NCBI GenBank assembly: GCA_032249235.1
Contig: JAVVGF010000001.1
Span: 152,399 to 216,398, forward strand
DNA from: Thermoproteota archaeon
GTDB taxonomy: Archaea > Thermoproteota > Thermoprotei > Gearchaeales > Gearchaeaceae
Direction: 5' to 3'
Length of the DNA stretch: 64,000 nucleotides
The position numbers and the translations under genes were made by a program. Of the stretch, positions 44,438 through 60,698 are shown piece after piece; the first letter of the stretch is position 1, and every line of letters starts with the position of its first letter. Under the pieces are notes generated by a model, which saw only the letters and a list, made by a program, of their open reading frames with translations, made no database searches and was not told the origin of the DNA.

Positions 44438-45505
44438 TTGAGGATTAAAAATTCTATAATGAAAATTGCTATAATAGGTGCAGGACCTGCAGGAGCTAAT
44501 TGCGCTTATTGGGCTTCAAAAGAGGGTCATGAGGTAGTATTGTACGAGAAAAACACAGATTTTGCATTGAAGCCTTGCGGAGAAGGAGTATTTAAAGAAG
44601 CTTTTGAATATGTTCCAATAAAACCTGAAGAATCGAAGTGGTCTTTAAGCTATATTCATAGGGCTGAAGTTTATTATAAGAACAAATTATTACTCGAAAC
44701 AGATACCTCACCTTTTGATGGATATATTATTAACAAAAGGGCTTTCCTTAGAGAACTTGTAGAATATGCGATTGATGAAGGTGCTCGATTTCAAAAAGGG
44801 AGTTACTTTGTAGAAAAGGATGACTTTGATTTGATAATCGATGCAGGAGGCTACGTTTCAACTTTTGCAAGAAGAAAAGGTATTGTATATAATAATTATA
44901 AGCTAGCACCTGCTATACGCGGTTATGGGAAGTCATCTAAAATACGTGAAGATACCTTATACTTTGAAGTATATAATTTTGGTTATTCATGGATATTTCC
45001 TTATGGCAAAGGATACTGCAACTTCGGAATAGGAGGACATACGAACAATAAATCGCTCATGCTCAATAATTTATATTCCTTTTTGAAATTATTCGATGTA
45101 GAAATAGTTTCTAAGATTGAAGGCGCTGCATTTCCATCAAATGGTCCTCTTAAGAAACTAACTTTAGGCAAAATTAGAGTTGCAGGTGACACAGCGGGTA
45201 TGGTCATGCCTATAAGCGGTGAGGGAATAAGATTCGCCTTATATGCTGGTAAGATATGTTATAAAGAAAATTATGAAGAATTATTCAAACAAAAATACGG
45301 TAAAAAATTAGAAAACGGCAAAAAAATCTTAGACTTTTGGCTAAGTTTAAATGAAGAAGAACTTAAAATTTTAATAAAAGAAATGGATCCTTTGAAACTT
45401 ATCATGGCTTTTCTTGAAGGAGAAAAACCAAGTGTAATTGAAGGATTTAAGTTTTTGAAGAAACCTAACGTTATATTAAAAGCATTACAAAAAGTTTATA
45501 TTTAA
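44438..45505 (+). CDS. geranylgeranyl reductase-family FAD-dependent oxidoreductase (paralog 1)
   Basis: 355 aa. It has the N-terminal Rossmann motif KIAIIGAGPAGANCA, the KPCGEG motif matching the KPCGDA/G of characterised archaeal GGRs, and the downstream flavin-contacting VAGDTAGMVMPISGEGIRFAL motif. Confidence 0.75.
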   Translation: MRIKNSIMKIAIIGAGPAGANCAYWASKEGHEVVLYEKNTDFALKPCGEGVFKEAFEYVPIKPEESKWSLSYIHRAEVYYKNKLLLETDTSPFDGYIINKRAFLRELVEYAIDEGARFQKGSYFVEKDDFDLIIDAGGYVSTFARRKGIVYNNYKLAPAIRGYGKSSKIREDTLYFEVYNFGYSWIFPYGKGYCNFGIGGHTNNKSLMLNNLYSFLKLFDVEIVSKIEGAAFPSNGPLKKLTLGKIRVAGDTAGMVMPISGEGIRFALYAGKICYKENYEELFKQKYGKKLENGKKILDFWLSLNEEELKILIKEMDPLKLIMAFLEGEKPSVIEGFKFLKKPNVILKALQKVYI

Positions 45506-45940
45506 TATAAAAATCAGCCTTCTTTAAACGGTTTTATTTTTGCGTCTCCTTCAAATCTCAGTGTTCCCAATTTTGCTTCGCCTAGATAAAGCGATACGGC
45601 AAGATTCAAATTAGCAGACCATCCTGTTCCTAACGCCATTTTTGCTACTTCTAATAAGAATGCAAATAGTGGGTTCAAAGTTAACTCGGCCAATGTTTGC
45701 TTTTCTTCACTCATTGACTAATAAGTCTTATATTTATTTAAAAGCTTTACTATCCTTTCTTTGGAATGTATTCAATATTACCATTTATGACTACGGTGAT
45801 CAACTTTGTCTTGCCATAGTTTAAATCAATTTTAACATCTTTCATGCTTATTTCGAAATGTCTGTTCATTATTAGCATTATCAATTGCCTTATTACTTCC
45901 GCATTGAATAGAATTTTCTCCATAAGCAAAAATCTTTGTC

Positions 45941-47218
45941 ATGTTTAAAGCTTTATCTATCTTTTTTCGTTTAATGTTTTATCATTTGTTTCCATACATG
46001 ATTCTTTGCTTAATCTTCAACTCAAGCTTTTTTTCTAACGTAATTACGGATAAGATTAATTTGTCTAAATTCATTTATTTGAACGTGAATAAATGCATCA
46101 TAATAGGAGCTGGACCAGCAGGCTTAACCTTTGCATGGCATGCAGCAAGGAAAGGTTTGAATGTAACTGTATATGAGGGAAGAAAAGTTTTCGCAACGAA
46201 ACCTTGTGGCGAAGCGTTAGCTGGTGATTCATTAAGCGTACTTCCTTTTAAAATCGGTTATATGTACAAATGGATTTTATCGCCTATGCGTTTTGTCGAG
46301 CTCTATTACAACGGTAGGTATTATAGAACAATAAAATCTCCCTTCGGAGAAAACGGCTATATAATAAACAAAAGATTATTCCTTCAAGAGTTGGCGGACA
46401 TTGTTGAAAAAGAAGGTGCTAAAATCGAAATGGGCAAGTTTTTTAAACCATCGCTAGATGACGCAGATTTGATAGTTGATGCGTCTGGCTATTTGACAGC
46501 TTCTCGTAATTATTTAAATTTAAGAGAATTATACAATAAAGAATACAGGAATATACCTGTTTTAAGAGATTATGCTGAATCAAATGGAATACTTAAGGAA
46601 GGTTATTTGCTCATCGATCTTTTAGATAGAGGATATTTCTGGATATTTCCTTATGGCAAAGATACTTATAATATTGGAATTGGAGGTCTATATAGCGGTG
46701 AAGAACTAAGAAAAATTTATGAAAAGAAAATTAATCAATTCGAACTTAAGTTAATAAAGAATACTAGACAGGGTGCAAGTGTATCTATAGGTGGAATTAT
46801 ATCTAATCAAAGAATAGGTAAATATTATATTATTGGAGAAGCTGCGGGCTTCGTCATGCCAACAACAGGTGAAGGAATACGTTTTTCAATACTATCTGCA
46901 TATGAATATTTCAATAACAATAGCTTACTAAAGAACATTAGAAAAAGAATACAGTTCAATGCTAAACTTTTGAGACTGGCGATCGAATTGGATGATAAGC
47001 TAAAAAGCAAGCTAATTAGCCAAGCTCCTGAAGATTTGATCATGGTATTTTTAGGGGAAAAAAGTGTTTCTACTAATGATATTATAAAGTTCTTATCAGT
47101 CTTTTCAAGAAATCTTAGCACAAGTCTTCAAAGATCACTTTACTCTATTGTTCAATTTTTAATATCTAACAAAGTTGATACAAAAAAATATGTATTGAAT
47201 TCTAATGTAAAACATTAA
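45941..47218 (+). CDS. geranylgeranyl reductase-family FAD-dependent oxidoreductase (paralog 2)
   Basis: 425 aa as annotated. The ~50-aa hydrophobic N-terminus precedes the Rossmann motif CIIIGAGPAGLTFA, so the true start may be a GTG/TTG near 46079–46087. It has KPCGEA and IIGEAAGFVMPTTGEGIRFSIL motifs. Confidence 0.7.
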   Translation: MFKALSIFFRLMFYHLFPYMILCLIFNSSFFSNVITDKINLSKFIYLNVNKCIIIGAGPAGLTFAWHAARKGLNVTVYEGRKVFATKPCGEALAGDSLSVLPFKIGYMYKWILSPMRFVELYYNGRYYRTIKSPFGENGYIINKRLFLQELADIVEKEGAKIEMGKFFKPSLDDADLIVDASGYLTASRNYLNLRELYNKEYRNIPVLRDYAESNGILKEGYLLIDLLDRGYFWIFPYGKDTYNIGIGGLYSGEELRKIYEKKINQFELKLIKNTRQGASVSIGGIISNQRIGKYYIIGEAAGFVMPTTGEGIRFSILSAYEYFNNNSLLKNIRKRIQFNAKLLRLAIELDDKLKSKLISQAPEDLIMVFLGEKSVSTNDIIKFLSVFSRNLSTSLQRSLYSIVQFLISNKVDTKKYVLNSNVKH

Positions 47219-47248
47219 TATTTTTATGTAGAGATTTCCTTAAGTTTT

Positions 47249-50200
47249 ATGATGAAATTTTTGTCGAAGAAAGTTATAGTAGTCGCTTTGCTAATTATCC
47301 TTATCTTAGGAATTCTGCTTTATTTTCTGCCAGACATCGGCTATATGATATTCTTTAAGAATCCTTCAATAGCTTTAGTAGGCGTTGAAGGTAAAGGAGT
47401 ACAAGGAGATTTCGTATTGATGAGCGCATTGCTTAACGTTACAAACAATGCAGGGGTATCTGTAGTTTTAAAAGAAGCGAATGGCGAAGTATATTATAAG
47501 GGAGATAAATTTGGAACTTTCAATTATAAAGGTTCTCTTTTCATACCTTCTAACGGTCAAGTCTCTATTAATGTTACAGTATTATTAGATTCTAAATCTC
47601 CTACTTTGAAACAGCTTATTCAAGATATTCTAAAGAATAATTCCTCTGATATATCTTACAAAGCAAGCTTATTAGTTACATCTTCATTCTTCTTCTTAAG
47701 CTTTAGTAAAGAAGTAGAAATAGCTGGCAAGTATATACTTTACTTGAAAGACTTTGTAAAAGTAATAGGATGGGAAATAAACGTCAAAAAGATAAATTTA
47801 ATCTCCTCAAATAATAATCCCTTATTAAATGTAACAGTTAATGCAAAGAATTTATCTAGTTTAGATATTCTTATTAAACAAGCTAATATAACTATTTTTT
47901 ATAAAAAAGAAGCTTTAGGACATTCGAAATTGAATAATCAAATAGCCATAAAAGCTAATGAAAGTAAGGAATTGAGTCTTATCTTAAATTTAACTAATAT
48001 TAACTTATTAAGAGATGCGATTAGGGATTTAATAAATAGCTATTCTATAAGTTTTGATTATATTGCAGATTTAAAGGTTTATTCTTATTATTATTATTTA
48101 GAAACAAATTATACAATTAAGGGAAAGCAAGAATATAAACTATCAGAAGTAGCAAATGATTTGAGACTTAACAAAATAATTATAAACCAAAATAGTATTT
48201 TAGCAGATATCTCCTATTTTAATAATTTAGGTGTTCAATTCTTTGTCAAGGATGTAAATGCAAATATCTACTTTAATAATTCACTGGTAGGCAAAATTAA
48301 TGCAACTATAAATAAAGAGATCATACCTGCTACGGAAAATCGATTTCTTATTTCAGCTATTCCAATTGATTTATCTAGTTTAATAGGCTTTATTTTGGAT
48401 AATAAGACGGTTAGACTATCAGTACAGGCTGACATAAGAGTATCAATTTTTAACGAGACTTATTTAGCTCATCTGAGTCTTGAAAAATCTATAAGCTTAG
48501 ATTATACCTTAAAAGCTAGTATAAACAACGTTAGATATGTTGCAGCCAATATTTTGGAAGTCGATGCAAATTTAATTGCTACTACGAATCTTATAACAGG
48601 TAACTTCACATTGAATAGTGCAAGTTTCAATGCATATTTGAATCAAACTTTTGTAGGAGATGGGATATTACAGAACCCTACAAAAATTTATCTGAATAAA
48701 CCTTCTCAAATAAAAATAAGAGTTTATCTACATAAAGATATCATTCCAATATTAATAATAAAATTGTTAACAAATTCTTCTTTTGATTTAGTTCTTAAGA
48801 ATGCCATATTTCAAGTTAATTTTGCAAATAACACATATCCCGTCAAGCCTAGCAAAGATATAATTGTTTCTGCTCAACCTTTTACTTTAGATATCAACAT
48901 TTATAATCCATCTTTCATTGCCTTATCTACTACAACAGATAATAAAATAGGAATTAAGGCAAGTGTAGCGATAAACATTCCGAATGTTTATAACTTACCT
49001 ATTATTATAAAGTCAGCAAATGTCACTCTTGTTGAAGATGAATTTGGACAAATAGGATATCTCTACATAACGAACGATCAACTTATATATCCACAGTATA
49101 ATCTTGTTGGCGATTTCATAGCAAATATAGATAAATCTAAGCTTCAGTTATTGATCCAAAAAGCTATAAATAACAACGGCCTTAATGTTACCTTTAAAGA
49201 TATCGTTATAACAGTATCTATACTTGACAAGACAACTACAATAAAGTTGAGTAAAACATTTGCATTAAAAGTACCTACACCTTTAGTTCTCGAATCTAAT
49301 CTAGGAATTAAAAAAGTATCAATAGGGCCTTCGCCTAAATCTTTCTTGATAGACACAGATTTCACTATAAATCTAAAAAGTATGTCTGTTTCCAATGTAT
49401 ATATTAGCGACGCTCGGGCTCAAATATACTTTAAGGATAAACAGATTGGCTACGCGTACATAACAATTAACAGAGTTGTTATCAACTTACCTTTCACTTA
49501 TAGTGGTAAGGCTTTAATTAACATTACAGACGAAGGTGCAAGCATGTTAGCTATTGAAATTTTAAAGCAAAATCCTATTACAGTAAGCATTAAAAATATT
49601 CAAGTTAATCTCAAAATCACAGATATACCAATTTCTATAGCTTTACCATCAAACATTGTATTTCAATCAACAATCAAGCCAGATATTAATATACATGTAA
49701 GCGATTTTACTATTCGTTCACCTGGTAACGTTATAGATGCGTTTGCCCAACTTAATTCAACTCTTATTAAATTAAACGTTGACAGAATAGATTCTCTTTC
49801 TGCAAATATTATCGATGAAAATGGGAAGATTTTAGGTTATATTTTAGGTGTTTCCGTAGTTAACAATCCAAATTATATATTTCAAGGAATGATTGAATTG
49901 CAACTAACGCAGCAAGGACTTGATTCATTAGCACCTAAGCTAATGAATAACAATACTTTAATTATTTTCGCTAAAAATATTGTTATAAATGCTTATATTA
50001 ATAATGTTAAAATTTATATAAATGATCCTAATATATATATTATAAAAATCTCAACAGATTTTCAATATAATTATACTTTTAATATTATTGATTTAAATGC
50101 TTATCCTCCTGGTACTTTGTTTAAATTGAATATAACAATCGATTATCAAATAAAGAATGGTGTTAATACACCTTTTAGTGTTATTAAAGCAACAATGAAA

Positions 50201-50893
50201 ATATATAATTTAACAGATTTCTATTTAGGGGATGCTATAGTAGATAAGCCTGTATATGTTAGCTCTTTGTCTGGAAGAATTAATTTCAATGCTTCCTTCT
50301 ATTTACGACCTGAAGGAGCTCCTTGGTTTGCATCAAACCTCGTTAATAACGGTACTGTTAGGATTAAGATTAGCGAAATCTACGCTACTGTGAAATTTTT
50401 CGATTATAACGTAACTGTACCTATAAAAGGTTTAACATATACATACAAAACCAATCCTGTAACTATAAAAATTGAAAAAATAACGATAAAGAGTGTTAAT
50501 CCCTTCGCAAACAGCGCAGTGGTAGAAGCAACTATTTTAGTGTATAATCCATTTAAGTTCCCAGTTACTATTACCTACATGTCTGGAAGCAATTATAGTA
50601 TAACTTTCCAAATTTTCGAATCTCAAAGAGAAGCTCATCCAGGTTATTATCTAGGATATGGCTGGTATTCTTCACAGACTTATGTTCCTGCTTTAAGTAA
50701 TGTTACTTTATATCCTGTAACTGTTGTATTAACAGATGTTCTACATTTATTCCTTCCTCCTCACGGAACGCTAGTCCCTTTACATACAAGTATATATGTC
50801 GATGCTCTGAATGGAAGAGCAGGAATAAAACTATATGATCTTTACTTTACTTTTAAGTTTGAAAAGAGAGAAATATACGTGACTTATCCTTAA
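47249..50893 (+). CDS. giant N-terminally anchored beta-repeat surface protein (paralog A; LEA_2/WHy-like repeated beta-sandwich modules suspected)
   Basis: 1214 aa. A single N-terminal TM (VIVVALLIILILGILLYFL) is followed by more than ten ~100-aa modules of alternating hydrophobic/polar beta-strand pattern (e.g. ISIKNIQVNLKITDIPISIALPSNIVF) with very dense N-x-S/T sequons. Confidence 0.65.
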   Translation: MMKFLSKKVIVVALLIILILGILLYFLPDIGYMIFFKNPSIALVGVEGKGVQGDFVLMSALLNVTNNAGVSVVLKEANGEVYYKGDKFGTFNYKGSLFIPSNGQVSINVTVLLDSKSPTLKQLIQDILKNNSSDISYKASLLVTSSFFFLSFSKEVEIAGKYILYLKDFVKVIGWEINVKKINLISSNNNPLLNVTVNAKNLSSLDILIKQANITIFYKKEALGHSKLNNQIAIKANESKELSLILNLTNINLLRDAIRDLINSYSISFDYIADLKVYSYYYYLETNYTIKGKQEYKLSEVANDLRLNKIIINQNSILADISYFNNLGVQFFVKDVNANIYFNNSLVGKINATINKEIIPATENRFLISAIPIDLSSLIGFILDNKTVRLSVQADIRVSIFNETYLAHLSLEKSISLDYTLKASINNVRYVAANILEVDANLIATTNLITGNFTLNSASFNAYLNQTFVGDGILQNPTKIYLNKPSQIKIRVYLHKDIIPILIIKLLTNSSFDLVLKNAIFQVNFANNTYPVKPSKDIIVSAQPFTLDINIYNPSFIALSTTTDNKIGIKASVAINIPNVYNLPIIIKSANVTLVEDEFGQIGYLYITNDQLIYPQYNLVGDFIANIDKSKLQLLIQKAINNNGLNVTFKDIVITVSILDKTTTIKLSKTFALKVPTPLVLESNLGIKKVSIGPSPKSFLIDTDFTINLKSMSVSNVYISDARAQIYFKDKQIGYAYITINRVVINLPFTYSGKALINITDEGASMLAIEILKQNPITVSIKNIQVNLKITDIPISIALPSNIVFQSTIKPDINIHVSDFTIRSPGNVIDAFAQLNSTLIKLNVDRIDSLSANIIDENGKILGYILGVSVVNNPNYIFQGMIELQLTQQGLDSLAPKLMNNNTLIIFAKNIVINAYINNVKIYINDPNIYIIKISTDFQYNYTFNIIDLNAYPPGTLFKLNITIDYQIKNGVNTPFSVIKATMKIYNLTDFYLGDAIVDKPVYVSSLSGRINFNASFYLRPEGAPWFASNLVNNGTVRIKISEIYATVKFFDYNVTVPIKGLTYTYKTNPVTIKIEKITIKSVNPFANSAVVEATILVYNPFKFPVTITYMSGSNYSITFQIFESQREAHPGYYLGYGWYSSQTYVPALSNVTLYPVTVVLTDVLHLFLPPHGTLVPLHTSIYVDALNGRAGIKLYDLYFTFKFEKREIYVTYP

Positions 50894-52794
50894 GATATTG
50901 ATTGTTTTTTGTTTTTTGAGCGTGTAATTATTAATCCTATTAAGAACATGATAATCGCTATCAATCCTAAAGCTGGAATCCATTCATAGATTAGAAATAA
51001 CTCTTTATAGCTCGTTTTTGAAGGAACTTTTACTGGTATTATGTTTGAGAAATTGCTCTCGCCATACTCGTTGAAAGCTGTTATAGCATAGTAATATTGA
51101 ACATCTTTGGAAGCTGAAGTGTCGATATAGGAATAAATGTTGCCTTCAGTTGTTGCGATTTTTTTCAATGAGTTTGGACTTTCTCCTCTATAAATATTAT
51201 ATCCTAAAACAGGAATGTAGAATGGGTTATTATCTATCCAACTCAGTGAGGGATAGCCTGAAACGCTAGCAATTAAGCTAGGAGCTTGAGGAGGTTGTGG
51301 ATTTATTCCAGTATTTATCTTTATAGTTAAAGAAGAAACCAAGTTGAAATTATTCGAAGCTGAAACTTCTAAGCTTATATTATACAGACCGTTAGGGAGG
51401 TTATTCAAATAGAAAGTGGCTATCAGGCCATTTCTATTTTCAAAACCGATCAATGCAGTATAAGCTTTTGGATATTTAGTTACAGGTGCAATTGTAATTT
51501 TGAAAAATTTCAAATATGTTGAATTGTTCGCTGCTATAACTGCTACTGTACCATACAAATCAAAAGCAGTAACGTTTGATTTAGAAGTATATTGAATTTT
51601 ATCTATTGAGGAAAAGTATGCGCTTGCATTATTGAATACAATAATATTGTTTAAATCTGAAATCGAGGAATCAACTGCGATAATTTTTGCATTATTTCTA
51701 AGTATTACTTTATCTACAATTGAACTCTTATTTAACATTAATTTCGAATTGCCTTTTGCATAAATTAATCCAATCAACCTTACATTGTATGCTTTTAATC
51801 CAACATTATCATCAATATATATATCTATATTAGAAGAGTTTGCTAAATACACATCTTTAATTTTACTAAAATAAAGTCTCCATTTTTTAATCTCCGTATT
51901 TATTAAATTAATGAATGTTTCATTTGATAATATAAAATTTTTCTTTAAAAAATATCCTGTACTTAAATTTGTAATTTTACTATTAATATCAAATATAGAT
52001 ATAATGAGATTTACAGAATCATAAATAGTATAATTTCCTTTATTTAATAGTAATATTTCAGAATTTAATTCAGGAGGATTTATATAACTGTTGAATACTT
52101 CTATTCTATTATTCTGGAAATATTGTGGTTTTAAGAGAGTAGAATTCCAATATTTAAAATAACCATGAGGGATTTGGATAGATACGGAATTTCCAAAATT
52201 AATTGCCAAACTTATTGAGAACGTTGAAGAGTTTATGAACGCATTTATGCCTTGATCATAAAGAATCAAATCAAATCCTGAAGAACTTCTAATGGATAAG
52301 TTAGAGGAAGAAAGAGGAGTGATTCTAATTTTTCCATAGAATGCAACTAAAGAAGAGTTCAAAGAACTTTCATTTAAAACCATTTCAAAATTATTCGATG
52401 AAATACTTGAATTTGTTAGTATGATTTCAGATTTGTTAAATGACTTAAATTGTATTCCATAATCTACATTTAATTTTGTATTATTTAAAATTAAAGAAGA
52501 TTTATATAGTGTAATGTTATTTTTAAAGTTTATCTCAGAATTATTTATAACTATTTTTGAATTATTATTAGCTTGTACCATTCCACTTATAGTTATATTC
52601 GAGGAATTATTTATAATTAGTTGTGCATTGTTTTTTAAATATATATCACATATATAAAGACCATTTGTATTTATAGTATATTGCTGTGAATCAAGATTTA
52701 TATTTTCGCAAGAAGGTGCCTTGACGATTTGACTTGAATTGAAAATATTCAAAGCGAGCAAGATGAGTATTAAGTAAGCCTTTTTATCCTCCAT
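50890..52794 (-). CDS. secreted right-handed beta-helix-like protein with fibronectin type III domain and C-terminal TM anchor
   Basis: 634 aa. A signal peptide is followed by many short Asn/Ile-rich parallel-beta-helix-like repeats (..NNSxI..), then an FN3-like segment (PQAPSLIASVSGYPSLSWIDNN...YNIYRGESPN...YYYAITAFNEYGESNFS), then the TM LIAIIMFLIGLIIT with a basic tail. Confidence 0.6.
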   Translation of the reverse strand: MEDKKAYLILILLALNIFNSSQIVKAPSCENINLDSQQYTINTNGLYICDIYLKNNAQLIINNSSNITISGMVQANNNSKIVINNSEINFKNNITLYKSSLILNNTKLNVDYGIQFKSFNKSEIILTNSSISSNNFEMVLNESSLNSSLVAFYGKIRITPLSSSNLSIRSSSGFDLILYDQGINAFINSSTFSISLAINFGNSVSIQIPHGYFKYWNSTLLKPQYFQNNRIEVFNSYINPPELNSEILLLNKGNYTIYDSVNLIISIFDINSKITNLSTGYFLKKNFILSNETFINLINTEIKKWRLYFSKIKDVYLANSSNIDIYIDDNVGLKAYNVRLIGLIYAKGNSKLMLNKSSIVDKVILRNNAKIIAVDSSISDLNNIIVFNNASAYFSSIDKIQYTSKSNVTAFDLYGTVAVIAANNSTYLKFFKITIAPVTKYPKAYTALIGFENRNGLIATFYLNNLPNGLYNISLEVSASNNFNLVSSLTIKINTGINPQPPQAPSLIASVSGYPSLSWIDNNPFYIPVLGYNIYRGESPNSLKKIATTEGNIYSYIDTSASKDVQYYYAITAFNEYGESNFSNIIPVKVPSKTSYKELFLIYEWIPALGLIAIIMFLIGLIITRSKNKKQSIS

Positions 52795-52901
52795 CTAATC
52801 TTTAATGAGGATTTGTTATTTAAAGATATTTATTAAGATTCGATATCCTTTCATTCGTAATTACAATAAAGAATATAATCGAATGAAACATCTTAATATT
52901 A

Positions 52902-54173
52902 GTGAATTACGAAGTAATAGTAATTGGTGGAGGCCCTGCAGGGGCATATAGTGCAGCTCTTCTATCCAAATATGGTTATAATGTTTTGCTGATAGAAGCA
53001 GGGTCTTATAAAAGATACAAAGTATGTTCTGGTGGCACTCCTCTTCGCTCAGTTGAACTTCTTTCAAAATTGGGCGATCCTTCAAAAATTGTTGAGAGAG
53101 AGATTAAAGGTGTGAATATATTTATAGAGAACAAAGAAGTTATTTCAACTTATAAAGAAAAACCGATTGGATATAGCTATTATAGAAGCGAACTAGATCA
53201 ATGGATAAGAGATAGAGCTTCAGATCTGGGTTCAGTTGTATATCATGAAACAATTGCTAAAAAGATTAAAATAGAAAGAGATTTCGTTTATGTTAAGTGT
53301 TATCAAAAAGGGTTAGCTATTGATTTTAAAGGTAAACTTTTGATAGGTGCTTTTGGAATCAAGCCTGATTTATTGTTACAATTAGGCATAAAACCCACAG
53401 AATATCTCATATCTGTTCAGAGCGAGTTTAAAGGTGATACTCAACATATGGAAGAAGAAATAAGATCCTCTTTTAATTTTCTTATCCATCCTGAATTCTC
53501 AACATTTAGCTATGGTTGGATATTCCCAAAAAGCGAAGGTCTATCGATAGGTATAACGGATCGTATGGAAGGAAATATTGTATTAGAGAGATTTAAAAAA
53601 ATGTTATCTCAGCATCCTTTGGTTAAGGAGAAAATAAAAAACATGAAAATAATGCCAGTTAACGGTAAAGATGTTTTAGCTCACTTGAATCCAAATCGTC
53701 CTCTAAAAAGGACTTTTGGAAGAAGATTTGTTTTAGTAGGAGACGCAGCTGGCTTTGCAGATCCTATAACTTGGGAAGGGATATATTTTGCATTGAAGAG
53801 CGGTGAAATAGCTGCGAATGCTTTTTCAAAATTGCTTGAAAAAGGAAATATCAATGATAATTCTACTTCGCTCTACGAAAAGATGTGGAAAAGAGATTTC
53901 GGTAAAGTTTTTGAGATTGAATGGGCTGTTAAGCAACTCTTATGGGGAAAAGATCTAACCAATAAATGGCTCACTATAGCGAAATTTTTCAAGAGTAAAG
54001 AAGAAAGATATAACTTATTGAAAGAAGAACTTGCTCTGAGCATGTCGATAGCACCAGTTATAAAAAAGATGTCTACAATAGAGAAATTAAATATCGGCTT
54101 TAAATTAAAAGGTTATAAACTCTTAAGAAAACCCATTAATTTTGTTTATGTTTTCAAAACTTTGTTTTCGTAA
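52902..54173 (+). CDS. geranylgeranyl reductase-family FAD-dependent oxidoreductase (paralog 3)
   Basis: 423 aa with a GTG start. It has NYEVIVIGGGPAGAYSA, a KVCSGG (KPCGxx-equivalent) motif, and LVGDAAGFADPITWEGIYFALKSG. Confidence 0.75.
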   Translation: MNYEVIVIGGGPAGAYSAALLSKYGYNVLLIEAGSYKRYKVCSGGTPLRSVELLSKLGDPSKIVEREIKGVNIFIENKEVISTYKEKPIGYSYYRSELDQWIRDRASDLGSVVYHETIAKKIKIERDFVYVKCYQKGLAIDFKGKLLIGAFGIKPDLLLQLGIKPTEYLISVQSEFKGDTQHMEEEIRSSFNFLIHPEFSTFSYGWIFPKSEGLSIGITDRMEGNIVLERFKKMLSQHPLVKEKIKNMKIMPVNGKDVLAHLNPNRPLKRTFGRRFVLVGDAAGFADPITWEGIYFALKSGEIAANAFSKLLEKGNINDNSTSLYEKMWKRDFGKVFEIEWAVKQLLWGKDLTNKWLTIAKFFKSKEERYNLLKEELALSMSIAPVIKKMSTIEKLNIGFKLKGYKLLRKPINFVYVFKTLFS

Positions 54174-54176: not shown

Positions 54177-57100
54177 TTAAGATAGAATGGCGCATGTTTG
54201 TGGTACAGGTATCTTAGGTGTTACAAAATTTGTAAGAAAGGTTACATCATAAACTGTAGTAGTAGTAGAACCTTTGGCATAAACCATTAAGCCTGTAATG
54301 CATGCCTTAACTTGTAATGGGAATAGACTTATAATTGAATAAGATAGATTCGAATAAAGAGGATTAACGTTTGTTATAGTAACAGTTACACCTTGTATAG
54401 TTACAGATTGATTAGGCCCAAGTGTTATTGTTTGGGATATGATGGCTCTACCTAAAAAGGCTCCAGATGAATGGTATACGTCGACTTTAATGTTTGAAAG
54501 TGTCACAGTAAAGTTGTATGGATTTTTAAATGTAACATCTGCTTGAACAGTGACTGATCTAACCACTACAGAGGTACCAGATAATCCCCAATCAATATTT
54601 CGAACTACGATGTTAGATATAGAAACTGATAAATTGGGGCCAGTTATTGGAAGATCTACATCAACGAATGGAATGTCTCCTTCTATATCATAAATACTAA
54701 CATGCATTGTAATATTGCTCAATCTAACAATAACTAGTCCACTTGAAAGTAGATTTTGACCGAAATAGGCGAAACCTTCTTTATTCAGTGATACGGAAGC
54801 TTTAATATTTAAGGAAGCAAACTTTCCTGTAAATGTTCCTTGTGTTATAAGCTCACCTGAACCTATTGCTTTCCAGGAATTCATATAATTAGCCATAACG
54901 ATGAATTTTGCATTCTTGAAGTTTACGGGCGCATTTATACCTTGCTTAAGTGTTACATTAAGCAAGCCTTCTCCAATTATATTAATTCCTTGGCTTGATG
55001 GATATACTGAAAAGCCTTTGAGTGTGGCGTTTGTTTCTATTTCTATCAAAGAACTTACTCTTAAGAATACGGTTCTAAATAAGAATATATTCACTTCTTT
55101 ACCTCCTAAATTAGCTACAACATTCACATCTGAACCATATAGCAAGGTATCTGCTCCTTTAATTAACGGTCCAATATAAGTTAAAGGATTTTGTGATACA
55201 AAGTTAATTAAAAACTTTCCGTTTAATAAGGAACCATTGACATTTGAATATACACTTAACAGTGATCCGTTTGCGAAATAAGTAAAGGTGTTGCCATCAT
55301 TGAGTTTAAATTTTAACGATAATATGTTAACTGGAATTTGGTAGTTTGGCGAATATAATTGCGCCTCAACTTCTGCTTTTTTACCAGGATAGAAGTTGAA
55401 TTGCGATATCTTAATTATTAATCTAGGAAAAAGTTCGGCTTTTATAGTATATGATGCTATGTAAAGTTTTAAAGGAAGACTAAATAACTTGAGATATACC
55501 GTTATATTCTTTACAGTTAAGTTTAGAAAGTCATTTTGTAAAGCCTGTTGAGCGATCCATCTCAATCCTTCTTCCGTTATTGTAACATTCGCATTTGCTA
55601 CAAATGTTTTACTTCCGCTACCTACGAGTATAACAATAGGTATTACGTTTTCATATTGTCTAGGTTGAAGGGTTGCATTTTTGGCTATAAGCACTGAGCC
55701 ATCAGAAGAATAAACATCATATGTGACTTGATAAATGTATAGCTGAATAGGAAAATCAGATTTTAAATCTATAGTAACATTTAAAGTTATTTTGAAAATA
55801 CCCAATGAAGGTGCTGTAATAAAGCCTGCATAAACTCTTACTCCAACCAATCCAAGCGGTGTAACTTCTATATCTTGAGATACTCTTAGATTGACAGGCA
55901 AATACGTATTGCCAACTTTTAGCGTAGCGTTCATACTTTTTATATAAAATTTAACCTTTCCTTGAGTTGCAAATAGACTGAAGATCTTACTAGTAGATGG
56001 ATCATTGACATTAAGCAATATTGAGACGTTGCTATATGTCTCATCACTCAAAAGAAGACTGCTCGATTTGATCTTAAGAGTTGAATTTGTTTGAGGTTCG
56101 TATATCACAAAGGATGGATTGAGCAAGGAAAGATTCAGCTTACTGACGTTAGGTGCTTTTACGAGGAATTTCAGAGTAACATTCAAGTTATTGTTGTCTG
56201 GGGATACTTGAATGTTTGTAACTTTTATTTCGAAATTAATGCCTAGACTTTGATAATCAACGGGTATACTTATCCTTCTATCTGAATGTATCATTATATC
56301 TTTATTGAAAATTTCAATTGTTCCATTAACATTGAGAATATCTAGCGTAATTGATTGTCCGCTGAAAAATAGGCTAATCAATGATGGAAGGCTTTCTTTA
56401 TTTAGATCAAGAATGAGCGTAATGTTATTTAATTTTTCACCCATGACATCAATATTTGAAAGGTAACCAATGCCTAATCTTTCGTTACCTGAATATACTG
56501 TGAATAATAATTGCTTTATCTTGAAAAATAAATCAAAATTATCGGATAAAGAAAATGTAACATTCGAATTAATCAATAATTTCGTCTCTTCTAAAAATTT
56601 TATGTTATTAACTTTAGCCTGCATGTCAAAATCAAAATTGATATTTTTATTGATTGTTGCGTTAAATGAGGCTTGTATATCACCGAAAAGCAAAGCTACT
56701 TCTCCCTTCCAAGTTAGAACAATTGTTTTATTGTTCACTAAATCATTTATAGCTCCGCTTATTCCATCAGTTTCTATATATGCATTGACAATGAGCCTAT
56801 TATAATCATGAGGCCTTAATTCTATTGGTCCAGAATAATTTAAGGAACCTATATTTTTATTATTGTAATAAATGTTTCCTTTCATTGAAGTTAACGTTAT
56901 TCCAAGATTAGTAGGATTATTAAGAATAATTATTGCTTTTGCATCGTTGTTCTTAGGTATAATTATTTTATCAACAGATACAAAAGATTGGATACTTTCC
57001 AATTCAAACTTAGCTTTTTCCTTAGGAATATGTAAATTGATAGTTAAGAAGCTAAATACTGGAACAGCTACTTTTATGTCTCCTTCATAATAGAAAGAAC

Positions 57101-57473
57101 TGTTACCATTTGTTAGCAGCTCACTTAATAATCTATTGAACGCACTTCCTGTAATAACCTTTAGCGTTACATTTAATGGTGTAGGTTTGCCTGCAGGTAT
57201 TTCTATTTCTCCTACCTTTATCTCACCTATTATTCCTTCTTCATTAAATATTATGATATCTCCTTCTTTTACATTAGCTGATATTGAGGCTTGGTTAATT
57301 AATTTTACAGATATTTCTATACTATTAGGACCTGTCTGTTTGACAATGTATATTGAATCTATTTTTGGTGGAACATATAGGAAAATCGGCAATAAATATA
57401 CCGTTAAGGAACCAAGAAGAATTAAGATTAATGACATAATTGCGAGCTTTTTATAAAGCGTTTTCATTATCAT
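54177..57473 (-). CDS. giant N-terminally anchored beta-repeat surface protein (paralog B)
   Basis: 1098 aa with the same architecture as 47249..50893: N-terminal TM LAIMSLILILLGSLTVYLLPIFL, then repeated beta-sandwich-like modules with pervasive sequons. Confidence 0.65.
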   Translation of the reverse strand: MIMKTLYKKLAIMSLILILLGSLTVYLLPIFLYVPPKIDSIYIVKQTGPNSIEISVKLINQASISANVKEGDIIIFNEEGIIGEIKVGEIEIPAGKPTPLNVTLKVITGSAFNRLLSELLTNGNSSFYYEGDIKVAVPVFSFLTINLHIPKEKAKFELESIQSFVSVDKIIIPKNNDAKAIIILNNPTNLGITLTSMKGNIYYNNKNIGSLNYSGPIELRPHDYNRLIVNAYIETDGISGAINDLVNNKTIVLTWKGEVALLFGDIQASFNATINKNINFDFDMQAKVNNIKFLEETKLLINSNVTFSLSDNFDLFFKIKQLLFTVYSGNERLGIGYLSNIDVMGEKLNNITLILDLNKESLPSLISLFFSGQSITLDILNVNGTIEIFNKDIMIHSDRRISIPVDYQSLGINFEIKVTNIQVSPDNNNLNVTLKFLVKAPNVSKLNLSLLNPSFVIYEPQTNSTLKIKSSSLLLSDETYSNVSILLNVNDPSTSKIFSLFATQGKVKFYIKSMNATLKVGNTYLPVNLRVSQDIEVTPLGLVGVRVYAGFITAPSLGIFKITLNVTIDLKSDFPIQLYIYQVTYDVYSSDGSVLIAKNATLQPRQYENVIPIVILVGSGSKTFVANANVTITEEGLRWIAQQALQNDFLNLTVKNITVYLKLFSLPLKLYIASYTIKAELFPRLIIKISQFNFYPGKKAEVEAQLYSPNYQIPVNILSLKFKLNDGNTFTYFANGSLLSVYSNVNGSLLNGKFLINFVSQNPLTYIGPLIKGADTLLYGSDVNVVANLGGKEVNIFLFRTVFLRVSSLIEIETNATLKGFSVYPSSQGINIIGEGLLNVTLKQGINAPVNFKNAKFIVMANYMNSWKAIGSGELITQGTFTGKFASLNIKASVSLNKEGFAYFGQNLLSSGLVIVRLSNITMHVSIYDIEGDIPFVDVDLPITGPNLSVSISNIVVRNIDWGLSGTSVVVRSVTVQADVTFKNPYNFTVTLSNIKVDVYHSSGAFLGRAIISQTITLGPNQSVTIQGVTVTITNVNPLYSNLSYSIISLFPLQVKACITGLMVYAKGSTTTTVYDVTFLTNFVTPKIPVPQTCAILS

Positions 57474-57503: not shown

Positions 57504-60500
57504 CTAACGATACCGTACAGGTAAATTATTAACAGTATATTGAATTATAGTCTTTAAATTCCCCACCTTAATTGAAATCAATACTTGAATATCAACGTTC
57601 ATTTTTAGCGTGTCATTTTGAGAATTGTAATGTCTTAATACGTAAGAAACGGATACATCAGGTATGTTTATTTCTAAATCACTTATTATAGTTGATGAAT
57701 TAGGTCCTAGTGTTATGTTGCTTAATTGCGTATTTCCTACAGGCTTACCATCCATTGAATCATATATATTTAAGATAGCCAAATCTAATTTGACGGTAAA
57801 ATTATAAGGATTTATTATTTTAATCGTAGATTTTGCTTTTATTTCGTTACCTGAAATATACATTACCTGAAATTCTAATATTTCAACTTGTACAGGCTTA
57901 CTTTGGTAAGTAATCGTAAGATTTAATGGAAGGCTTGCTGTGTAATATTGATCCATCAAATTTACGATCACTATTATTTTATCGATGGTTACTTTTACTG
58001 TTTTGCCGTTTGCAATCAATGTAGCAATATAATCTAACCTAGGTCCGCTTAAAAGATTTAATTTTGCTGTTGCAATATAGGTATCCTTGCTTATTGGAAT
58101 AACTTCAGAAATGGTACCGTTTGCCACTTCAATTCTAAGCTCATCTTTAATAGTGAAACTAGCATTAACAAGCTTTGCATCTACAATGTTATTCGATATG
58201 GTGAGCCTAAATTTTACATATACAAAGTTATCGCTAATTGAAGGTGGAACATTTATATCTATTACGCTTACTTCAAAGCTCAAAGGCTTAATGTTTGGTA
58301 TGATTGTGATGAACACTGAACTTTCTGCAAATAAATCGTAATTTTCTCCTAATAGTGATATTGAGCCTTTAATGTTTTTACCAATAACAGTTGCGTTGTA
58401 ACCGAGAAGGATTTTAGCTAGATTAGTTTGGTTTTTATTCGTCAAAACTATCAAACCATTTCCTTTGAAAGAGGAATTAATATAAGATGCATTAGATAAT
58501 TTAATATAACCTATTATGTTAGAAAATTCATCAGTTACATTTCCTTCAAAATTATTTACGCCAAACGGGACTTCAATTCCCTTTAGTTTCATATCAAATG
58601 AAAAACTTAATGTTTTGCCGTTTATTATATTAATATTGTTAAGATAAACCTGCAATAAAGGTAATAAAATTACATTTAAAGTTACATTTCTTATTAACAA
58701 TATAATACTAAATGTCCCAATTTTTACAGTTATATTTGCATCAAGTATAATTAAGTTTGTTTTTCCTTTTTCTAAAAAATCTTTGATCATCTTTCCAGTT
58801 AAACTCTTTGATAATTTAACTACGCTAGTAGTGCTAAAGTTATATGATTGTTCATTAGATATGTATTGATTAATATCTTGTTTAAAATTTTCTAATACTT
58901 TATCACCTTCGATTGTAAAAACATTCATGTAAACATTAACAAGGAAAAATTTTTCCACTTTTAATTTTGATTTTAGAGATATATTGAGATCAAGTTTGTA
59001 TGAGCTATCAAAAGAACGTATGTTAATTAGATAAGCGTTTGCTTCAAGAATATCTAAAGGAGATATCTTTAGTAAAATATTCAAATTGGTTTGCTTTGAG
59101 ATCGTTTTGCCATATACATTTACTTTTAAATATCCTCCTTGGATTTGCAGTAAAAGCGAACCATTTTTTGCGAAATCTTGAATGAGAGGTTTAACATTAG
59201 GATCGTTTACTCCCAAAGTTACTGTAGTAAAGAAATTAGATGAATTGGATAGATCAATCGGGCCATTTATTTTTTGATCGAACACCAGCTTCCCATTGTT
59301 GAAATTTAACTTAAACACTGCCTCGTCGATAGTCATTGGTATACCAGTAACGTTTAAAGAGAGAAAACTGAAATTGAAGCCAATAATGAGAGTATCTTTA
59401 TTTTGATCATACATAATCGAATATGGTTTTACTCCTATAATGAAGCGGGCATAGCCCCAATCTAGATTTATTGAATACTTTCCTAATTTTAAATTAACTA
59501 TATCAGTTCCAAATGCTAATTTGGGCTGTTCAACAAAATTAAGAGATAGTTTAACAGTGGAATTTTTTAAAAATTCATCTACGAATAAATAAAAGTTATC
59601 TATTATGGGTAATATTACTATTTTACTATATACAATACCATTTGATGCGCTCGAATCTGTTATTCTGAAGTCCGCTATATAAGTTTCATTCAAAATCACT
59701 TTACCACTTCCACCTGCTAGGTTTATTCCATTTAATGGTAAAGATGCTATTTTGCTACTTAAATACCCTGTAATCTCTAATCTCTCTGGATATTTAAAAT
59801 ACTTTATCGAATTTATAGTAAAATTAGAAAATGTTGGTATTTCAATATTTCTTGATAATGAAATATTTAATGGAATCAATATTGTTCCAAATTTAATTTT
59901 TGCATTTATAATTGAATTCATCAAAGGATTAGAAAAAATTATGTTACCTAAATTATTTATATAACTAGTAGAATTGTAAAATAAATTTATTATAAAATTT
60001 TGATTAGCCTCAACTTCATAAGATTTATTAGAATAAAAGTGTATTATATCATTATTGTATATTTTTAAAACTCCACTTATATCTTGAATTATAAAGCTTG
60101 AGTTTAAGGGATTTTCGATAATTACATTGATTGTGTTTTTATCTATGCTCACTGATTTTATTGTATTATTTAACGAATATTGGTAAAGGAATGTCGAACC
60201 TTTTATTGTTGTTGGGATTTCAAAAAATAAAAATTTTGTATTTACATTACCTTCATAGCTGACTTCAATGTTTCCTTTAGAGAAAAGTCCATTCAAGACG
60301 CTACTGAAATATTTGATATCTTCTTTATCTACGAAGGCACTTAACTTGATTGAGTTTTCACCTGAATTTATATCTAATGGGTTATTTATGGTAATTGTAG
60401 CAAATTTATTATTCTCATACAGTATGTTAATATGTCCTTTATTAATACTGATTGCTTGGAAATTATTTATGATAACTAATGACGCATCAATTACTAAATT

Positions 60501-60698
60501 GTCCCCCAATTGCTTTATTCCTAAAACTTTTACACTTTTTATTGAAGGCTGAAATATAAACATCGGAAATATTAGAAAGACGGAAACTATAATTACTGCA
60601 ATTAAAACTAGGGCAATTAATTTTCTCTTTCCTATACGCATCAATATTTTATTAGTTTCTTTCTTAAAAAGTATTGAGAATAAATTTTGAAATATCAA
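57504..60698 (-). CDS. giant N-terminally anchored beta-repeat surface protein (paralog C)
   Basis: 1064 aa. The N-terminal TM LIALVLIAVIIVSVFLIFPMFIF is followed by repeated modules. It lies tandem to and co-directional with paralog B, 30 bp apart. Confidence 0.65.
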   Translation of the reverse strand: MIFQNLFSILFKKETNKILMRIGKRKLIALVLIAVIIVSVFLIFPMFIFQPSIKSVKVLGIKQLGDNLVIDASLVIINNFQAISINKGHINILYENNKFATITINNPLDINSGENSIKLSAFVDKEDIKYFSSVLNGLFSKGNIEVSYEGNVNTKFLFFEIPTTIKGSTFLYQYSLNNTIKSVSIDKNTINVIIENPLNSSFIIQDISGVLKIYNNDIIHFYSNKSYEVEANQNFIINLFYNSTSYINNLGNIIFSNPLMNSIINAKIKFGTILIPLNISLSRNIEIPTFSNFTINSIKYFKYPERLEITGYLSSKIASLPLNGINLAGGSGKVILNETYIADFRITDSSASNGIVYSKIVILPIIDNFYLFVDEFLKNSTVKLSLNFVEQPKLAFGTDIVNLKLGKYSINLDWGYARFIIGVKPYSIMYDQNKDTLIIGFNFSFLSLNVTGIPMTIDEAVFKLNFNNGKLVFDQKINGPIDLSNSSNFFTTVTLGVNDPNVKPLIQDFAKNGSLLLQIQGGYLKVNVYGKTISKQTNLNILLKISPLDILEANAYLINIRSFDSSYKLDLNISLKSKLKVEKFFLVNVYMNVFTIEGDKVLENFKQDINQYISNEQSYNFSTTSVVKLSKSLTGKMIKDFLEKGKTNLIILDANITVKIGTFSIILLIRNVTLNVILLPLLQVYLNNINIINGKTLSFSFDMKLKGIEVPFGVNNFEGNVTDEFSNIIGYIKLSNASYINSSFKGNGLIVLTNKNQTNLAKILLGYNATVIGKNIKGSISLLGENYDLFAESSVFITIIPNIKPLSFEVSVIDINVPPSISDNFVYVKFRLTISNNIVDAKLVNASFTIKDELRIEVANGTISEVIPISKDTYIATAKLNLLSGPRLDYIATLIANGKTVKVTIDKIIVIVNLMDQYYTASLPLNLTITYQSKPVQVEILEFQVMYISGNEIKAKSTIKIINPYNFTVKLDLAILNIYDSMDGKPVGNTQLSNITLGPNSSTIISDLEINIPDVSVSYVLRHYNSQNDTLKMNVDIQVLISIKVGNLKTIIQYTVNNLPVRYR

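Follow-up and report, generated by a model that had tools for sequence, protein, structure and literature searches.

Three anciently separated paralogs of the geranylgeranyl reductase superfamily clustered in an archaeal genome

Why does an archaeal genome carry three members of the geranylgeranyl reductase (GGR) family within 10 kb, and which prenyl chains could their products reduce? The window analysed here is a stretch of 64,000 bp from an uncultured hot-spring archaeon. An earlier note on this DNA had described the three genes, with differing C-termini, as a local triplication that suggested new functions.

Three GGR-family genes in 10 kb

Three ORFs of the GGR superfamily, all on the + strand, were found within 10 kb; each matched TIGR02032, and the coordinates agreed with those of the note apart from the starts of the first and second genes. 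The C-termini differ as described, giving products of 348, 377 and 423 aa. By a post hoc estimate, the chance that three members fall into the same 10 kb in a genome of roughly 1.4 Mb is of the order of 1e-4 to 1e-3. The features are as follows.

44459..45505, + strand: GGR-A, short GGR-family flavoenzyme of 348 aa (ORF also readable from TTG 44438)
46040..46084, + strand: conserved A/T-rich stretch abutting the GGR-B start codon, likely the archaeal promoter/5' region of GGR-B
46085..47218, + strand: GGR-B, short GGR-family flavoenzyme of 377 aa with a GTG start (gene call of 377 aa)
52902..54173, + strand: GGR-C, GGR-family flavoenzyme of 423 aa from a clade other than that of GGR-A and GGR-B, with a longer helical C-terminal domain

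The start of GGR-A is most likely M8 (44459), and the resulting 348-aa product is identical to the called protein P0001. GGR-B starts at GTG 46085 and not at 45941, where the note had placed it. Two observations indicate this: the approximately 45 nt immediately preceding the GTG hardly vary when the window is compared with loci L008 and L009, with divergence and indels further upstream, and the 48 residues that a start at 45941 would add to the N-terminus are not conserved in 90%-identical strains (indels, diverged there). A gene for a 1214-aa LEA_2 protein begins 31 nt after GGR-B on the same strand. Comparison with the strain at 91% identity showed 90 synonymous and 31 nonsynonymous codon changes in GGR-A; between strains these numbers were 101 and 41 for GGR-B and 124 and 41 for GGR-C. 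All three are real, intact genes, and the ratio of about 3:1 in each shows that they are under purifying selection.

The homology of the three proteins to the GGR superfamily is far beyond chance. Scores on TIGR02032 ('geranylgeranyl reductase family', cutoff 158.8 bits) were 129.7 bits for GGR-A and 121.5 bits for GGR-B, both below the cutoff, and 173.4 bits for GGR-C, above it. GGR-B also matched GGR_cat (26.7 bits) and GGR-C the BchP-ChlP subfamily (149.5 bits, under the cutoff). Motifs were IGAGPAG, KPCGEG, GYSWIFP and GDTAGMVMPISGEGIR in GGR-A; IGAGPAG, KPCGEA, GYFWIFP and GEAAGFVMPTTGEGIR in GGR-B; and IGGGPAG, KVCSGG, SYGWIFP and GDAAGFADPITWEGIY in GGR-C. The N-terminal Rossmann GxGxxG that had been ascribed to all three is thus present throughout. 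The two other motifs ascribed to them, KPCGxx and D/E-AAG...GEGI, hold for GGR-A (GDTAG...GEGI) and GGR-B (GEAAG...GEGI) but not for GGR-C, which retains the cysteine without 'KPCG' and reads GDAAG...WEGI. The GGR-typical YxWxFP, absent from the earlier list, occurs in all three. Columns invariant across the families of GGR-A and GGR-B are GxGPxG, PC, GYxWxFP, GxGG and GEGIR. When aligned with a canonical GGR, the GxGxxG, the catalytic Cys loop, YxWxFP and GD...P..G.G were matched in each protein, so that FAD-binding and catalytic motifs are kept in all of them.

AlphaFold2 (AF2) structures were modelled for GGR-A and GGR-C, and these two are predicted to fold like solved archaeal GGRs. The model of GGR-A (pLDDT 92.6) had its best PDB matches in 3OZ2 and 3ATQ/4OPx, with a TM-score normalised to query length (TMq) of 0.81-0.85. 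For GGR-C (pLDDT 93.1) the best match was 3OZ2, both with Foldseek (E 3e-28) and by sequence (E 3e-20). These structures belong to the digeranylgeranylglycerophospholipid reductases of Sulfolobus acidocaldarius (Saci_0986; 3ATQ/3ATR/4OPx) and Thermoplasma acidophilum (Ta0516; 3OZ2). The models share their three-domain FAD-dependent fold (TMq 0.76-0.85), and all three proteins share their GxGxxG, catalytic Cys loop, YxWxFP cavity motif and GD...P..G.G. In contrast, identity in the structural alignment is 18-22%, and the C-terminal domain is shorter by about 50-100 residues in GGR-A and GGR-B.

A GGR fold could also serve another chemistry, either electron transfer of the FixC/ETF-quinone-oxidoreductase type or that of a flavin-dependent halogenase or monooxygenase. 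GGR-C matched FixC (7KOE_C, Foldseek E 6e-26; 179 bits to the C-family profile) nearly as well as it matched the Sulfolobus enzyme, its matches to flavin-dependent halogenases were also nearly as strong, Pfam Trp_halogenase was hit at 5e-8, and ETF alpha/beta genes are present in the window (439-2285). However, those genes lie >40 kb from the GGR genes, no ferredoxin gene, FixX-type included, was found adjoining any of the three, the top structural matches of both models are GGRs, and the three proteins, like their families as a whole, conserve both the catalytic Cys and YxWxFP. We regard such a chemistry as very improbable.

Divergence from the canonical lipid reductases

The three proteins were expected to be 30-40% identical to each other. 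This was the case for GGR-A and GGR-B (35%, E 1e-53) but not for GGR-A and GGR-C (approximately 24%) or for GGR-B and GGR-C, which gave local matches alone (30% over 100 aa). They are paralogs that separated long ago within the FAD-dependent geranylgeranyl (prenyl) reductase superfamily (arCOG00570/TIGR02032), and further members of an already known, uncharacterised group.

On NF041080 (cutoff 580) they scored 77, 72 and 98 bits, respectively, while a real Sulfolobus GGR, used as a positive control, scored 738.6 bits. On the haloarchaeal equivalog NF041385 (cutoff 700) GGR-A scored 22 and GGR-C 46 bits, and GGR-B had no reported match. The shortfall from lipid-GGR equivalog cutoffs is 5-8 fold. 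Scores on the MenJ HMM (NF045655) were 49-65 bits (cutoff 700) and on the ChlP HMM 26-92 bits (cutoff 505). A neighbour-joining (NJ) tree with 100 bootstraps was built in which the characterised GGRs were two with structures, plus FixC; AF0464, MA1484, AF0648, MenJ, HVO_1799 and ChlP were left out. The clades of GGR-A, GGR-B and GGR-C each had 100% bootstrap support, as did a short superclade formed by GGR-A, GGR-B, a 'mid' clade and paralogs of cultured Thermoproteota. The solved Sulfolobus and Thermoplasma GGRs nested in these clades in 0/100 replicates, which places the three outside the canonical lipid-GGR clade in this tree. Judged by these scores and this tree, none of the three is a canonical membrane-lipid GGR equivalog, in agreement with the earlier view of divergent enzymes rather than copies of it.

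GGR-A and GGR-B belong to a short (approximately 330-380 aa), mainly thermoproteotal paralog superclade, and GGR-C to a separate clade. Known members of the former within arCOG00570 are genes at the Saci_0991 position, which the Sulfolobus member occupies, and the 'FixC-domain dehydrogenase' of Hyperthermus, Fervidicoccus, Pyrofollis, Acidilobus and Caldisphaera. GGR-A and GGR-B share their length, the conserved Cys and GEGIR, at 25-33% identity to the cultured members. The window lineage has two members, in distinct conserved orthogroups.

One of the three could still be the divergent digeranylgeranylglycerophospholipid reductase of the lineage, GGR-C being the likeliest and GGR-B the alternative, and fewer 'extra' functions would then be needed. 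GGR-C exceeds the TIGR02032 cutoff and has the Thermoplasma lipid GGR as its best sequence and fold match, and it could serve as the bulk-lipid reductase if the genome has no Saci_0986-type GGR elsewhere; none of this lineage surfaced in our homology searches, which were not designed to find one. In the related MAG GCA_041640715.1, a DGGGP-synthase-like UbiA gene (NF009523 227.6, NF009521 188.7 bits) stands two genes upstream of the GGR-B ortholog, and in S. acidocaldarius the DGGGP synthase is Saci_1565 (PMC10138448) and one GGR paralog Saci_1567 (PMC10821996). Against this, the three reach about 42-98 bits on the lipid-GGR equivalogs with a HMMER-reported match (cutoffs 580-780), the solved enzymes stay outside their clades in the tree, cultured Thermoproteota with members of the GGR-A/GGR-B family carry a canonical GGR too, and no lipid-synthesis genes were found in the contexts of GGR-C orthologs. 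We consider a bulk-lipid role possible but doubtful.

Origin of the cluster

The suggestion of new functions started from an expectation of one GGR per genome, whereas several paralogs are the norm: arCOG00570 comprises 2024 genes in 452 archaeal species, and S. acidocaldarius has one GGR and five paralogs (PMC10821996). In GCA_041640715.1 the orthologs of GGR-A (67%), GGR-B (74%) and GGR-C (70%) are spread over three contigs (1, 12 and 2, respectively), each in a housekeeping context. The order Sua5-(AKR)-betaCASP-A-DUF354-MBL at GGR-A-type loci was found in 7/7 GTDB representatives in which such a gene (>=52% identity) had sufficient sequence around it, and the context of the GGR-C ortholog is repeated in SAG AAA471-B05. 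The window arrangement was confined to strains whose proteins are 89-91% identical, among them three further metagenomes in which the genes and the giant glycoprotein genes between them are kept in this order. Because the orthologs, each in its own orthologous group, are dispersed over different contigs in relatives, the clustering is a secondary, recent rearrangement in a species-level lineage rather than a tandem triplication or a conserved operon. There may be a selective or mechanistic reason for it, as three relocations into one 10-kb stretch are improbable by chance.

Candidate substrates

At least one paralog had been proposed to reduce dolichol (or polyprenol) for the neighbouring giant N-glycosylated surface proteins, dolichyl phosphate being the glycan carrier. 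Membrane anchors are present at the N-termini of the neighbours, which are indeed rich in N-x-S/T sequons, with about twice the shuffled expectation in four of them (31 vs 16.3, 26 vs 13.4, 28 vs 15.6 and 28 vs 17.2); the LEA_2 gene closely follows GGR-B, and the arrangement persists in the three further metagenomes. However, this adjacency is limited to strains with approximately 90% identical proteins, and orthologs at 63-74% identity are scattered among housekeeping genes, away from any LEA_2 gene. The window contains no homolog of a trans-polyprenyl synthase or UbiA, and those of its ORFs that were scanned against Pfam included none for an oligosaccharyltransferase, a glycosyltransferase or any other protein recognisable as part of a glycosylation pathway. 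GGR-A orthologs elsewhere, such as that of GCA_041640715.1, adjoin an MBL-fold gene and DUF354, which has a predicted glycosyltransferase-like fold but catalytic residues reported as non-conserved (PMC4520260). As a precedent, a Haloferax GGR is cited as acting on dolichol phosphate, whose omega-isoprene it reduces (Naparstek 2012, cited in PMC10821996); this enzyme, HVO_1799 of Haloferax volcanii, shows that the family can act on dolichol, but it is the lipid GGR of that organism using both substrates and not a dedicated clustered paralog. The genes linked to the wider GGR-A/GGR-B family are those for trans-polyprenyl synthase and MenA and not glycosylation genes, and we find a dolichol role unlikely.

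Paralogs of GGR have been proposed to saturate quinones or polyprenols (PMC10821996; PMC10138448). Among the alternatives raised earlier, comparative gene neighbourhoods suggest that quinone side-chain reduction is the best backed for GGR-A and GGR-B, because deeper members of their superclade adjoin, or are translationally coupled to, genes for a HexPS-like trans-polyprenyl-diphosphate synthase and MenA. In Hyperthermus the homolog shares 4 nt with the polyprenyl synthase gene upstream of it; in Sulfolobus S-194 the homolog is two genes away from HexPS (NF040936 467.7 bits, cutoff 400) and five away from the canonical GGR. A polyprenyl synthase gene directly adjoins nine 'mid'-clade loci (downstream on the same strand in eight, on the opposite strand in L029). 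MenA is directly downstream at three loci, L106 and L105 (TIGR00751 131.5 and 114.1 bits, cutoff 102) and L109 (by BLASTP similarity only); one locus carries both genes. The homologs with this synteny are 25-42% identical to GGR-A and GGR-B, and neither the window nor the loci of the GGR-A and GGR-B clades themselves has it.

The predicted mechanism of each enzyme is that reduced FAD would saturate C=C bonds in a polyprenyl chain bound inside a hydrophobic tunnel. For GGR-A and/or GGR-B the likeliest substrate would be the polyprenyl side chain of a respiratory quinone, or the polyprenyl diphosphate that is its precursor. The best overall explanation, which we hold with moderate confidence, is that of ancient GGR-superfamily paralogs, secondarily clustered, with a predicted quinone-side-chain role for GGR-A and GGR-B. 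Quinone-prenyl saturation is the role of mycobacterial MenJ (NF045655) and of AF0648, the MK-specific prenyl reductase of A. fulgidus, which belong to the same superfamily. AF0648 is reported to be without the catalytic and FAD motifs of GGRs (PMC10821996) and is by this description set apart from the three proteins of the window, which keep both.

The three genes and the GGR superfamily

The window is low in G + C (approximately 30%), and an identical copy of the region is present on JGI metagenome contig 3300045874|Ga0496361_000202. The nearest genomes are MAGs named 'Thermoproteota/Crenarchaeota archaeon' and the single-cell genome SCGC AAA471-B05 (YNPFFA lineage). Three geranylgeranyl-reductase-family (GGR) genes, A, B and C, are encoded in the window, with two small antisense genes between A and B:

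44438/44459-45505, + strand: A, 348 aa from M8
45514-45714, - strand: 66-aa gene
45753-45923, - strand: 57-aa gene
GTG start at 46085, + strand: B, 377 aa
52902-54173, + strand: C, 423 aa

A 425-aa, TM-anchored version of B starting at 45941 was rejected as an artefact, as the upstream ORF is unconserved, with indels and divergence in strains whose B is 90% identical. The approximately 45 nt preceding the GTG are nearly invariant between strains, as expected for a promoter region. Identity is 35% between A and B and 24% between A and C; B and C gave local matches only. Compared with a strain of approximately 90% identity, A, B and C alike differ mainly at third codon positions, and the approximately 3:1 excess of synonymous over nonsynonymous codon changes in each of them indicates that all three are functional genes.

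Among the loci fetched, the 66- and 57-aa genes were confined to the window lineage, and their products had no Pfam match. Between strains whose nucleotide sequences are approximately 12% apart in this stretch, the 24 differences in the 66-aa gene, almost all at third positions, leave its product unchanged, and the 57-aa product has 3 amino-acid changes.

All three proteins carry the N-terminal GxGxxG Rossmann motif for FAD binding (IGAGPAG in A and B, IGGGPAG in C), which is invariant in the family alignments. The catalytic cysteine (Cys47 of the Sulfolobus lipid GGR, SaGGR) is kept in KPCGEG (A), KPCGEA (B) and KVCSGG (C), against KPCGDA in the canonical Sulfolobus enzyme; every aligned member of the A/B family has it, and its conservation in the C family is at least 90%. 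The catalytic-cavity motif of GGRs, (P..)YxWxFP (PMC10821996), reads GYSWIFP in A, GYFWIFP in B and SYGWIFP in C; the canonical enzyme has GYWWYFP. The flavin motif GD..G...P..G.G was likewise placed in A, B and C by the alignment to an authentic Sulfolobus GGR. The diagnostic positions are invariant or nearly so within each protein's own family. The motif description in the earlier note is accurate for A and B and only approximate for C, with its KVCSGG.

The general family model TIGR02032 (cutoff 158.8) aligned over the full length, scoring 129.7 bits for A and 121.5 for B (E 1e-35 to 1e-37), both below the cutoff and similar to the short paralogs of cultured Thermoproteota (76-129 bits), and 173.4 for C, above the cutoff. 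For A and C, AlphaFold2 gave models with pLDDT of 92.6 and 93.1, and the best PDB matches of both were the solved archaeal GGRs 3OZ2 (Thermoplasma) and 3ATQ/4OPx (Sulfolobus), at E 1e-24 to 3e-28 and TMq 0.76-0.85. Flavin-dependent halogenases ranked below the solved GGRs for both models; FixC (7KOE_C) came third for C, above most Sulfolobus GGR entries. A three-domain GGR fold is thus predicted for the two proteins modelled, A and C; B is 35% identical to A.

Placement relative to the canonical lipid GGRs

A neighbour-joining tree was built from 62 sequences and 355 columns (Poisson distances, 100 bootstraps, FixC as root). The characterised GGRs in it were SsGGR and TaGGR, the Sulfolobus and Thermoplasma lipid GGRs; the euryarchaeal types AF0464 and MA1484, and AF0648, MenJ, HVO_1799 and ChlP were left out of the tree and represented by the scores of NCBIfam equivalog models. 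The A and B clades each had a bootstrap value of 100. They grouped at 91 with a 'mid' group of proteins from Korarchaeota-, Nitrososphaerota- and Hadarchaeota-labelled MAGs, and at 100 when the short paralogs of the cultured Thermoproteota (Sulfolobus, Hyperthermus, Pyrofollis, Fervidicoccus, Acidilobus and Caldisphaera) were included, with C outside. By this placement, A and B are members of a mainly thermoproteotal superclade of short GGR paralogs, of the Saci_0991-position type, and C is not. The core and extended C clades both had a bootstrap value of 100; the proteins closest to the clade of C come from diverse archaea and are known only as generic 'GGR family' members. In none of the 100 bootstraps were SsGGR and TaGGR, the two lipid GGRs in the tree, nested in the C clade or the A/B superclade.

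The lipid GGR models were NF041080, NF041160 and the haloarchaeal NF041385, and they include one for Thermoplasmatales. Sulfolobus sp. S-194 supplied the positive control, a GGR of 453 aa that scored 738.6 bits on NF041080.

Bit scores of A, B and C on equivalog models
Model (cutoff): A; B; C
NF041080 (580): 77.3; 71.9; 97.9
NF041160 (780): 65; 43; 68
NF041385 (700): 22; no reported match; 46
MenJ NF045655 (700): 54.6; 49.1; 65.4
ChlP TIGR02028 (505): 41.7; 25.9; 92.1
BchP-ChlP TIGR02023 (343): 75.7; 51.4; 149.5

With scores this far under the cutoffs and the lipid GGRs nested in none of the bootstraps, A, B and C are not canonical membrane-lipid GGRs (digeranylgeranylglycerophospholipid reductases), and the view of the earlier note that the genes are non-canonical and diverged is supported. 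Its reading would have failed with all three genes in the canonical clade or with missing FAD-binding residues, and the tree and the motif alignment showed neither.

The expectation of one GGR per genome did not hold, as several GGR-family genes per archaeal genome are the rule: arCOG00570 comprises 2024 genes in 452 species, and S. acidocaldarius has a GGR and five uncharacterised paralogs (PMC10821996). Close spacing of family members has precedent in Sulfolobus S-194, in which the canonical GGR and a short paralog are five genes apart, in agreement with the Saci_0986/Saci_0991 numbering of S. acidocaldarius.

Dispersed orthologs and the origin of the cluster

The three genes had been described as a local triplication. 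However, each belongs to an orthogroup of its own, and in the related MAG GCA_041640715.1 the orthologs A', B' and C' lie on three separate contigs. A' (67% identical) is located between Sua5-aldo/keto reductase-betaCASP and DUF354-MBL, B' (74%) follows tRNA endonuclease-UbiA-HisRS, and C' (70%) follows pyrimidine genes, an ABC-2 transporter, riboflavin kinase and an ECF component. The C context was also found in the single-cell genome AAA471-B05. The A context was kept in all seven GTDB representatives that have an A-type gene of at least 52% identity with enough flanking sequence, and also on Yellowstone contigs. The separate orthogroups and dispersed orthologs, together with the low identities of A to B (35%) and C (24%), rule out a recent local duplication.

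A of the window shares 64-68% identity with each relative in its clade, and the relatives share 58-75% with one another. With distances like these, A is more likely an ortholog than an additional, fast-evolving copy. Scanning genome contigs with the A-clade alignment gave a maximum of 67% identity to A among GTDB species representatives, a set from which the window's own species is missing; the metagenome contigs scanned were likewise without the window lineage (best match 65%).

The block Sua5-(aldo/keto reductase)-betaCASP-GGR-like-DUF354-MBL-fold (PRK04286-like) was seen in the fetched loci L003, L006, L007 (at 7952-12999, for example) and L018-L024, representing at least 7 species-level genomes, and the A of the window is the sole member outside it. 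The GGR-like and DUF354 genes of a Yellowstone genome overlap by 4 nt. One protein cluster, P0008, is named 'Geobacterales bacterium' by NCBI and seemingly equals, by our inference, L019 (JAJPJK010000002.1, 104,621 bp), named 'Crenarchaeota archaeon Centralia_MAG_457'; each is 65% identical to A. If the two correspond, one of the sources has probably labelled the taxon wrongly.

In the window, the order is MMPL, Opp-type ABC transporter, a 242-aa gene, A, the two small antisense genes, B, a LEA_2 gene (1214 aa), a 634-aa gene, C and a second LEA_2 gene (1098 aa). The ortholog loci of the relatives contain no LEA_2 gene and have no other gene in common with the window; elsewhere, the arrangement was found only in three further metagenomes, in strains with 89-91% identical proteins. 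The dispersed orthologs, and a cluster present only in strains of approximately 90% identity, indicate that dispersal is ancestral and that the clustering is derived and species-level.

Scans at the cluster for a mobile-element signature revealed no tRNA genes, flanking repeats or transposase/integrase ORFs. A scan for bacterial-type promoters and terminators, of little meaning in an archaeon, gave 61 sites against 57.5 expected.

Candidate substrates and the neighbouring genes

From the conservation of motifs and fold, the three enzymes are predicted to hydrogenate prenyl double bonds by means of FAD in a hydrophobic tunnel. A 2024 review takes as its standing hypothesis that GGR paralogs saturate quinones, polyprenols/dolichol and carotenoids (PMC10821996; also PMC10138448); few of the archaeal enzymes that saturate quinone side chains, dolichols and apolar polyisoprenoids have been identified (PMC10821996). 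The locus adds no new kind of enzyme, its genes being members of a known, functionally uncharacterised group. It does supply three clear-cut and divergent representatives that selection has maintained, from an uncultured thermoproteotal lineage of hot springs that is related to YNPFFA.

For the A/B superclade, substrates were considered solely from the gene neighbourhood of homologs. The Hyperthermus homolog (within L180, 5066-7062) overlaps by 4 nt the stop of an upstream polyprenyl-diphosphate synthase, whose best match is archaeal hexaprenyl-PP synthase (171 bits, below the cutoff), and a bona fide HexPS (467.7 bits, cutoff 400) is encoded two genes away from the Sulfolobus homolog (within L178, 2713-9266). 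A polyprenyl synthase directly adjoins the GGR-like gene at nine 'mid'-clade loci (L025-L031, L102 and L103); in eight of them it lies downstream in the same orientation, and in L029, which has both the synthase and MenA, it is encoded on the opposite strand. At L105, L106 and L109 a MenA-like prenyltransferase gene lies directly downstream; on TIGR00751 menA (cutoff 102) L106 scored 131.5 and L105 114.1 bits, and L109 is MenA-like by BLASTP similarity alone. Adjacency to synthase or MenA genes thus recurs in Hyperthermus, Sulfolobus and Korarchaeota-, Hadarchaeota-, Njordarchaeota- and Nitrososphaerota-labelled MAGs.

These neighbourhoods point to reduction of quinone side chains or medium-chain polyprenyl groups, and the A/B superclade is a candidate family of reductases for quinone side chains, different from MenJ. 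Such a role, if borne out, would close a gap in the biosynthesis of archaeal quinones. No trans-polyprenyl-diphosphate synthase or MenA neighbours were found in the window or next to the A-clade orthologs. In the window's own order the linkage is lost, A orthologs pairing with DUF354 and an MBL-fold protein, so the substrates of A and B stay uncertain. DUF354 has a predicted glycosyltransferase-like fold in which the catalytic residues are not conserved (PMC4520260), and a search against PDB sequences gave no meaningful match. A DGGGP-synthase-like UbiA (L015, 7371-8258, + strand; NF009523, 227.6 bits, just under the cutoff) is encoded two genes upstream of B' (10001-11101), a proximity that recalls Saci_1565 (DGGGPS) and Saci_1567 (GGR paralog) of S. 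acidocaldarius. C could be the lipid reductase of its lineage if there is no Saci_0986-type gene elsewhere in the genome; the contexts of its orthologs, including the crenactin neighbourhood of the C-family protein P0107, give no functional clue.

The GGR genes are interspersed with and followed by three genes for giant proteins with an N-terminal membrane anchor, and preceded by transporter genes:

34611-37760, - strand: MMPL-family (RND-type, lipid-transporter-like) protein, 1049 aa
38393-43630: Opp-type peptide ABC transporter, adjoining the MMPL gene
47249-50893, + strand: giant protein
54177-57473, - strand: giant protein
57504-60698, - strand: giant protein

The giant proteins (1064-1214 aa) are 20-25% identical to one another. 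With these three and secreted proteins of 634, 905, 929 and 1164 aa, the stretch from 27.6 to 64 kb is rich in surface proteins. The MMPL and Opp-type arrangement, just upstream of the GGR cluster, is kept in the strains of approximately 90% identity.

The earlier note had tied the GGR paralogs, through dolichol, to glycosylated neighbours. The giant proteins are plausibly extracellular glycoproteins, with their anchors, N-x-S/T sequons at approximately twice the shuffling expectation in all three and LEA_2 domains in two. However, their adjacency to the GGR genes is limited to near-identical strains, no prenyl-synthase or UbiA gene was found in the window, no recognisable glycosylation-pathway gene was present among the window ORFs scanned, and the comparative evidence leads to quinone genes; we consider the link unlikely. 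By our estimate, for a genome of approximately 1.4 Mb, the chance of three relocations into 10 kb is roughly 1e-4 to 1e-3, so coincidence is unlikely as well. Selection may instead have moved the three orthogroups out of conserved housekeeping loci into an envelope island, among the giant membrane-anchored LEA_2 glycoprotein genes and near the MMPL transporter, where the enzymes would jointly adjust how saturated the lipid carriers or anchors are (dolichol or another polyprenyl lipid) that serve to build or glycosylate the envelope. This would be a newly assembled functional gene cluster and no coincidence; we regard it as very improbable. The clustering itself has little worth as evidence of function, and a quinone side-chain role for the A/B superclade is the reading we prefer.

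Approximately 40 kb from the GGR genes, ETF alpha/beta genes (439-2285, - strand) adjoin genes for a thiolase and a DUF35/ChsH2-type OB-fold protein (2253-4006, + strand), a pair that we take to resemble the archaeal acetoacetyl-CoA thiolase pair feeding the mevalonate pathway.
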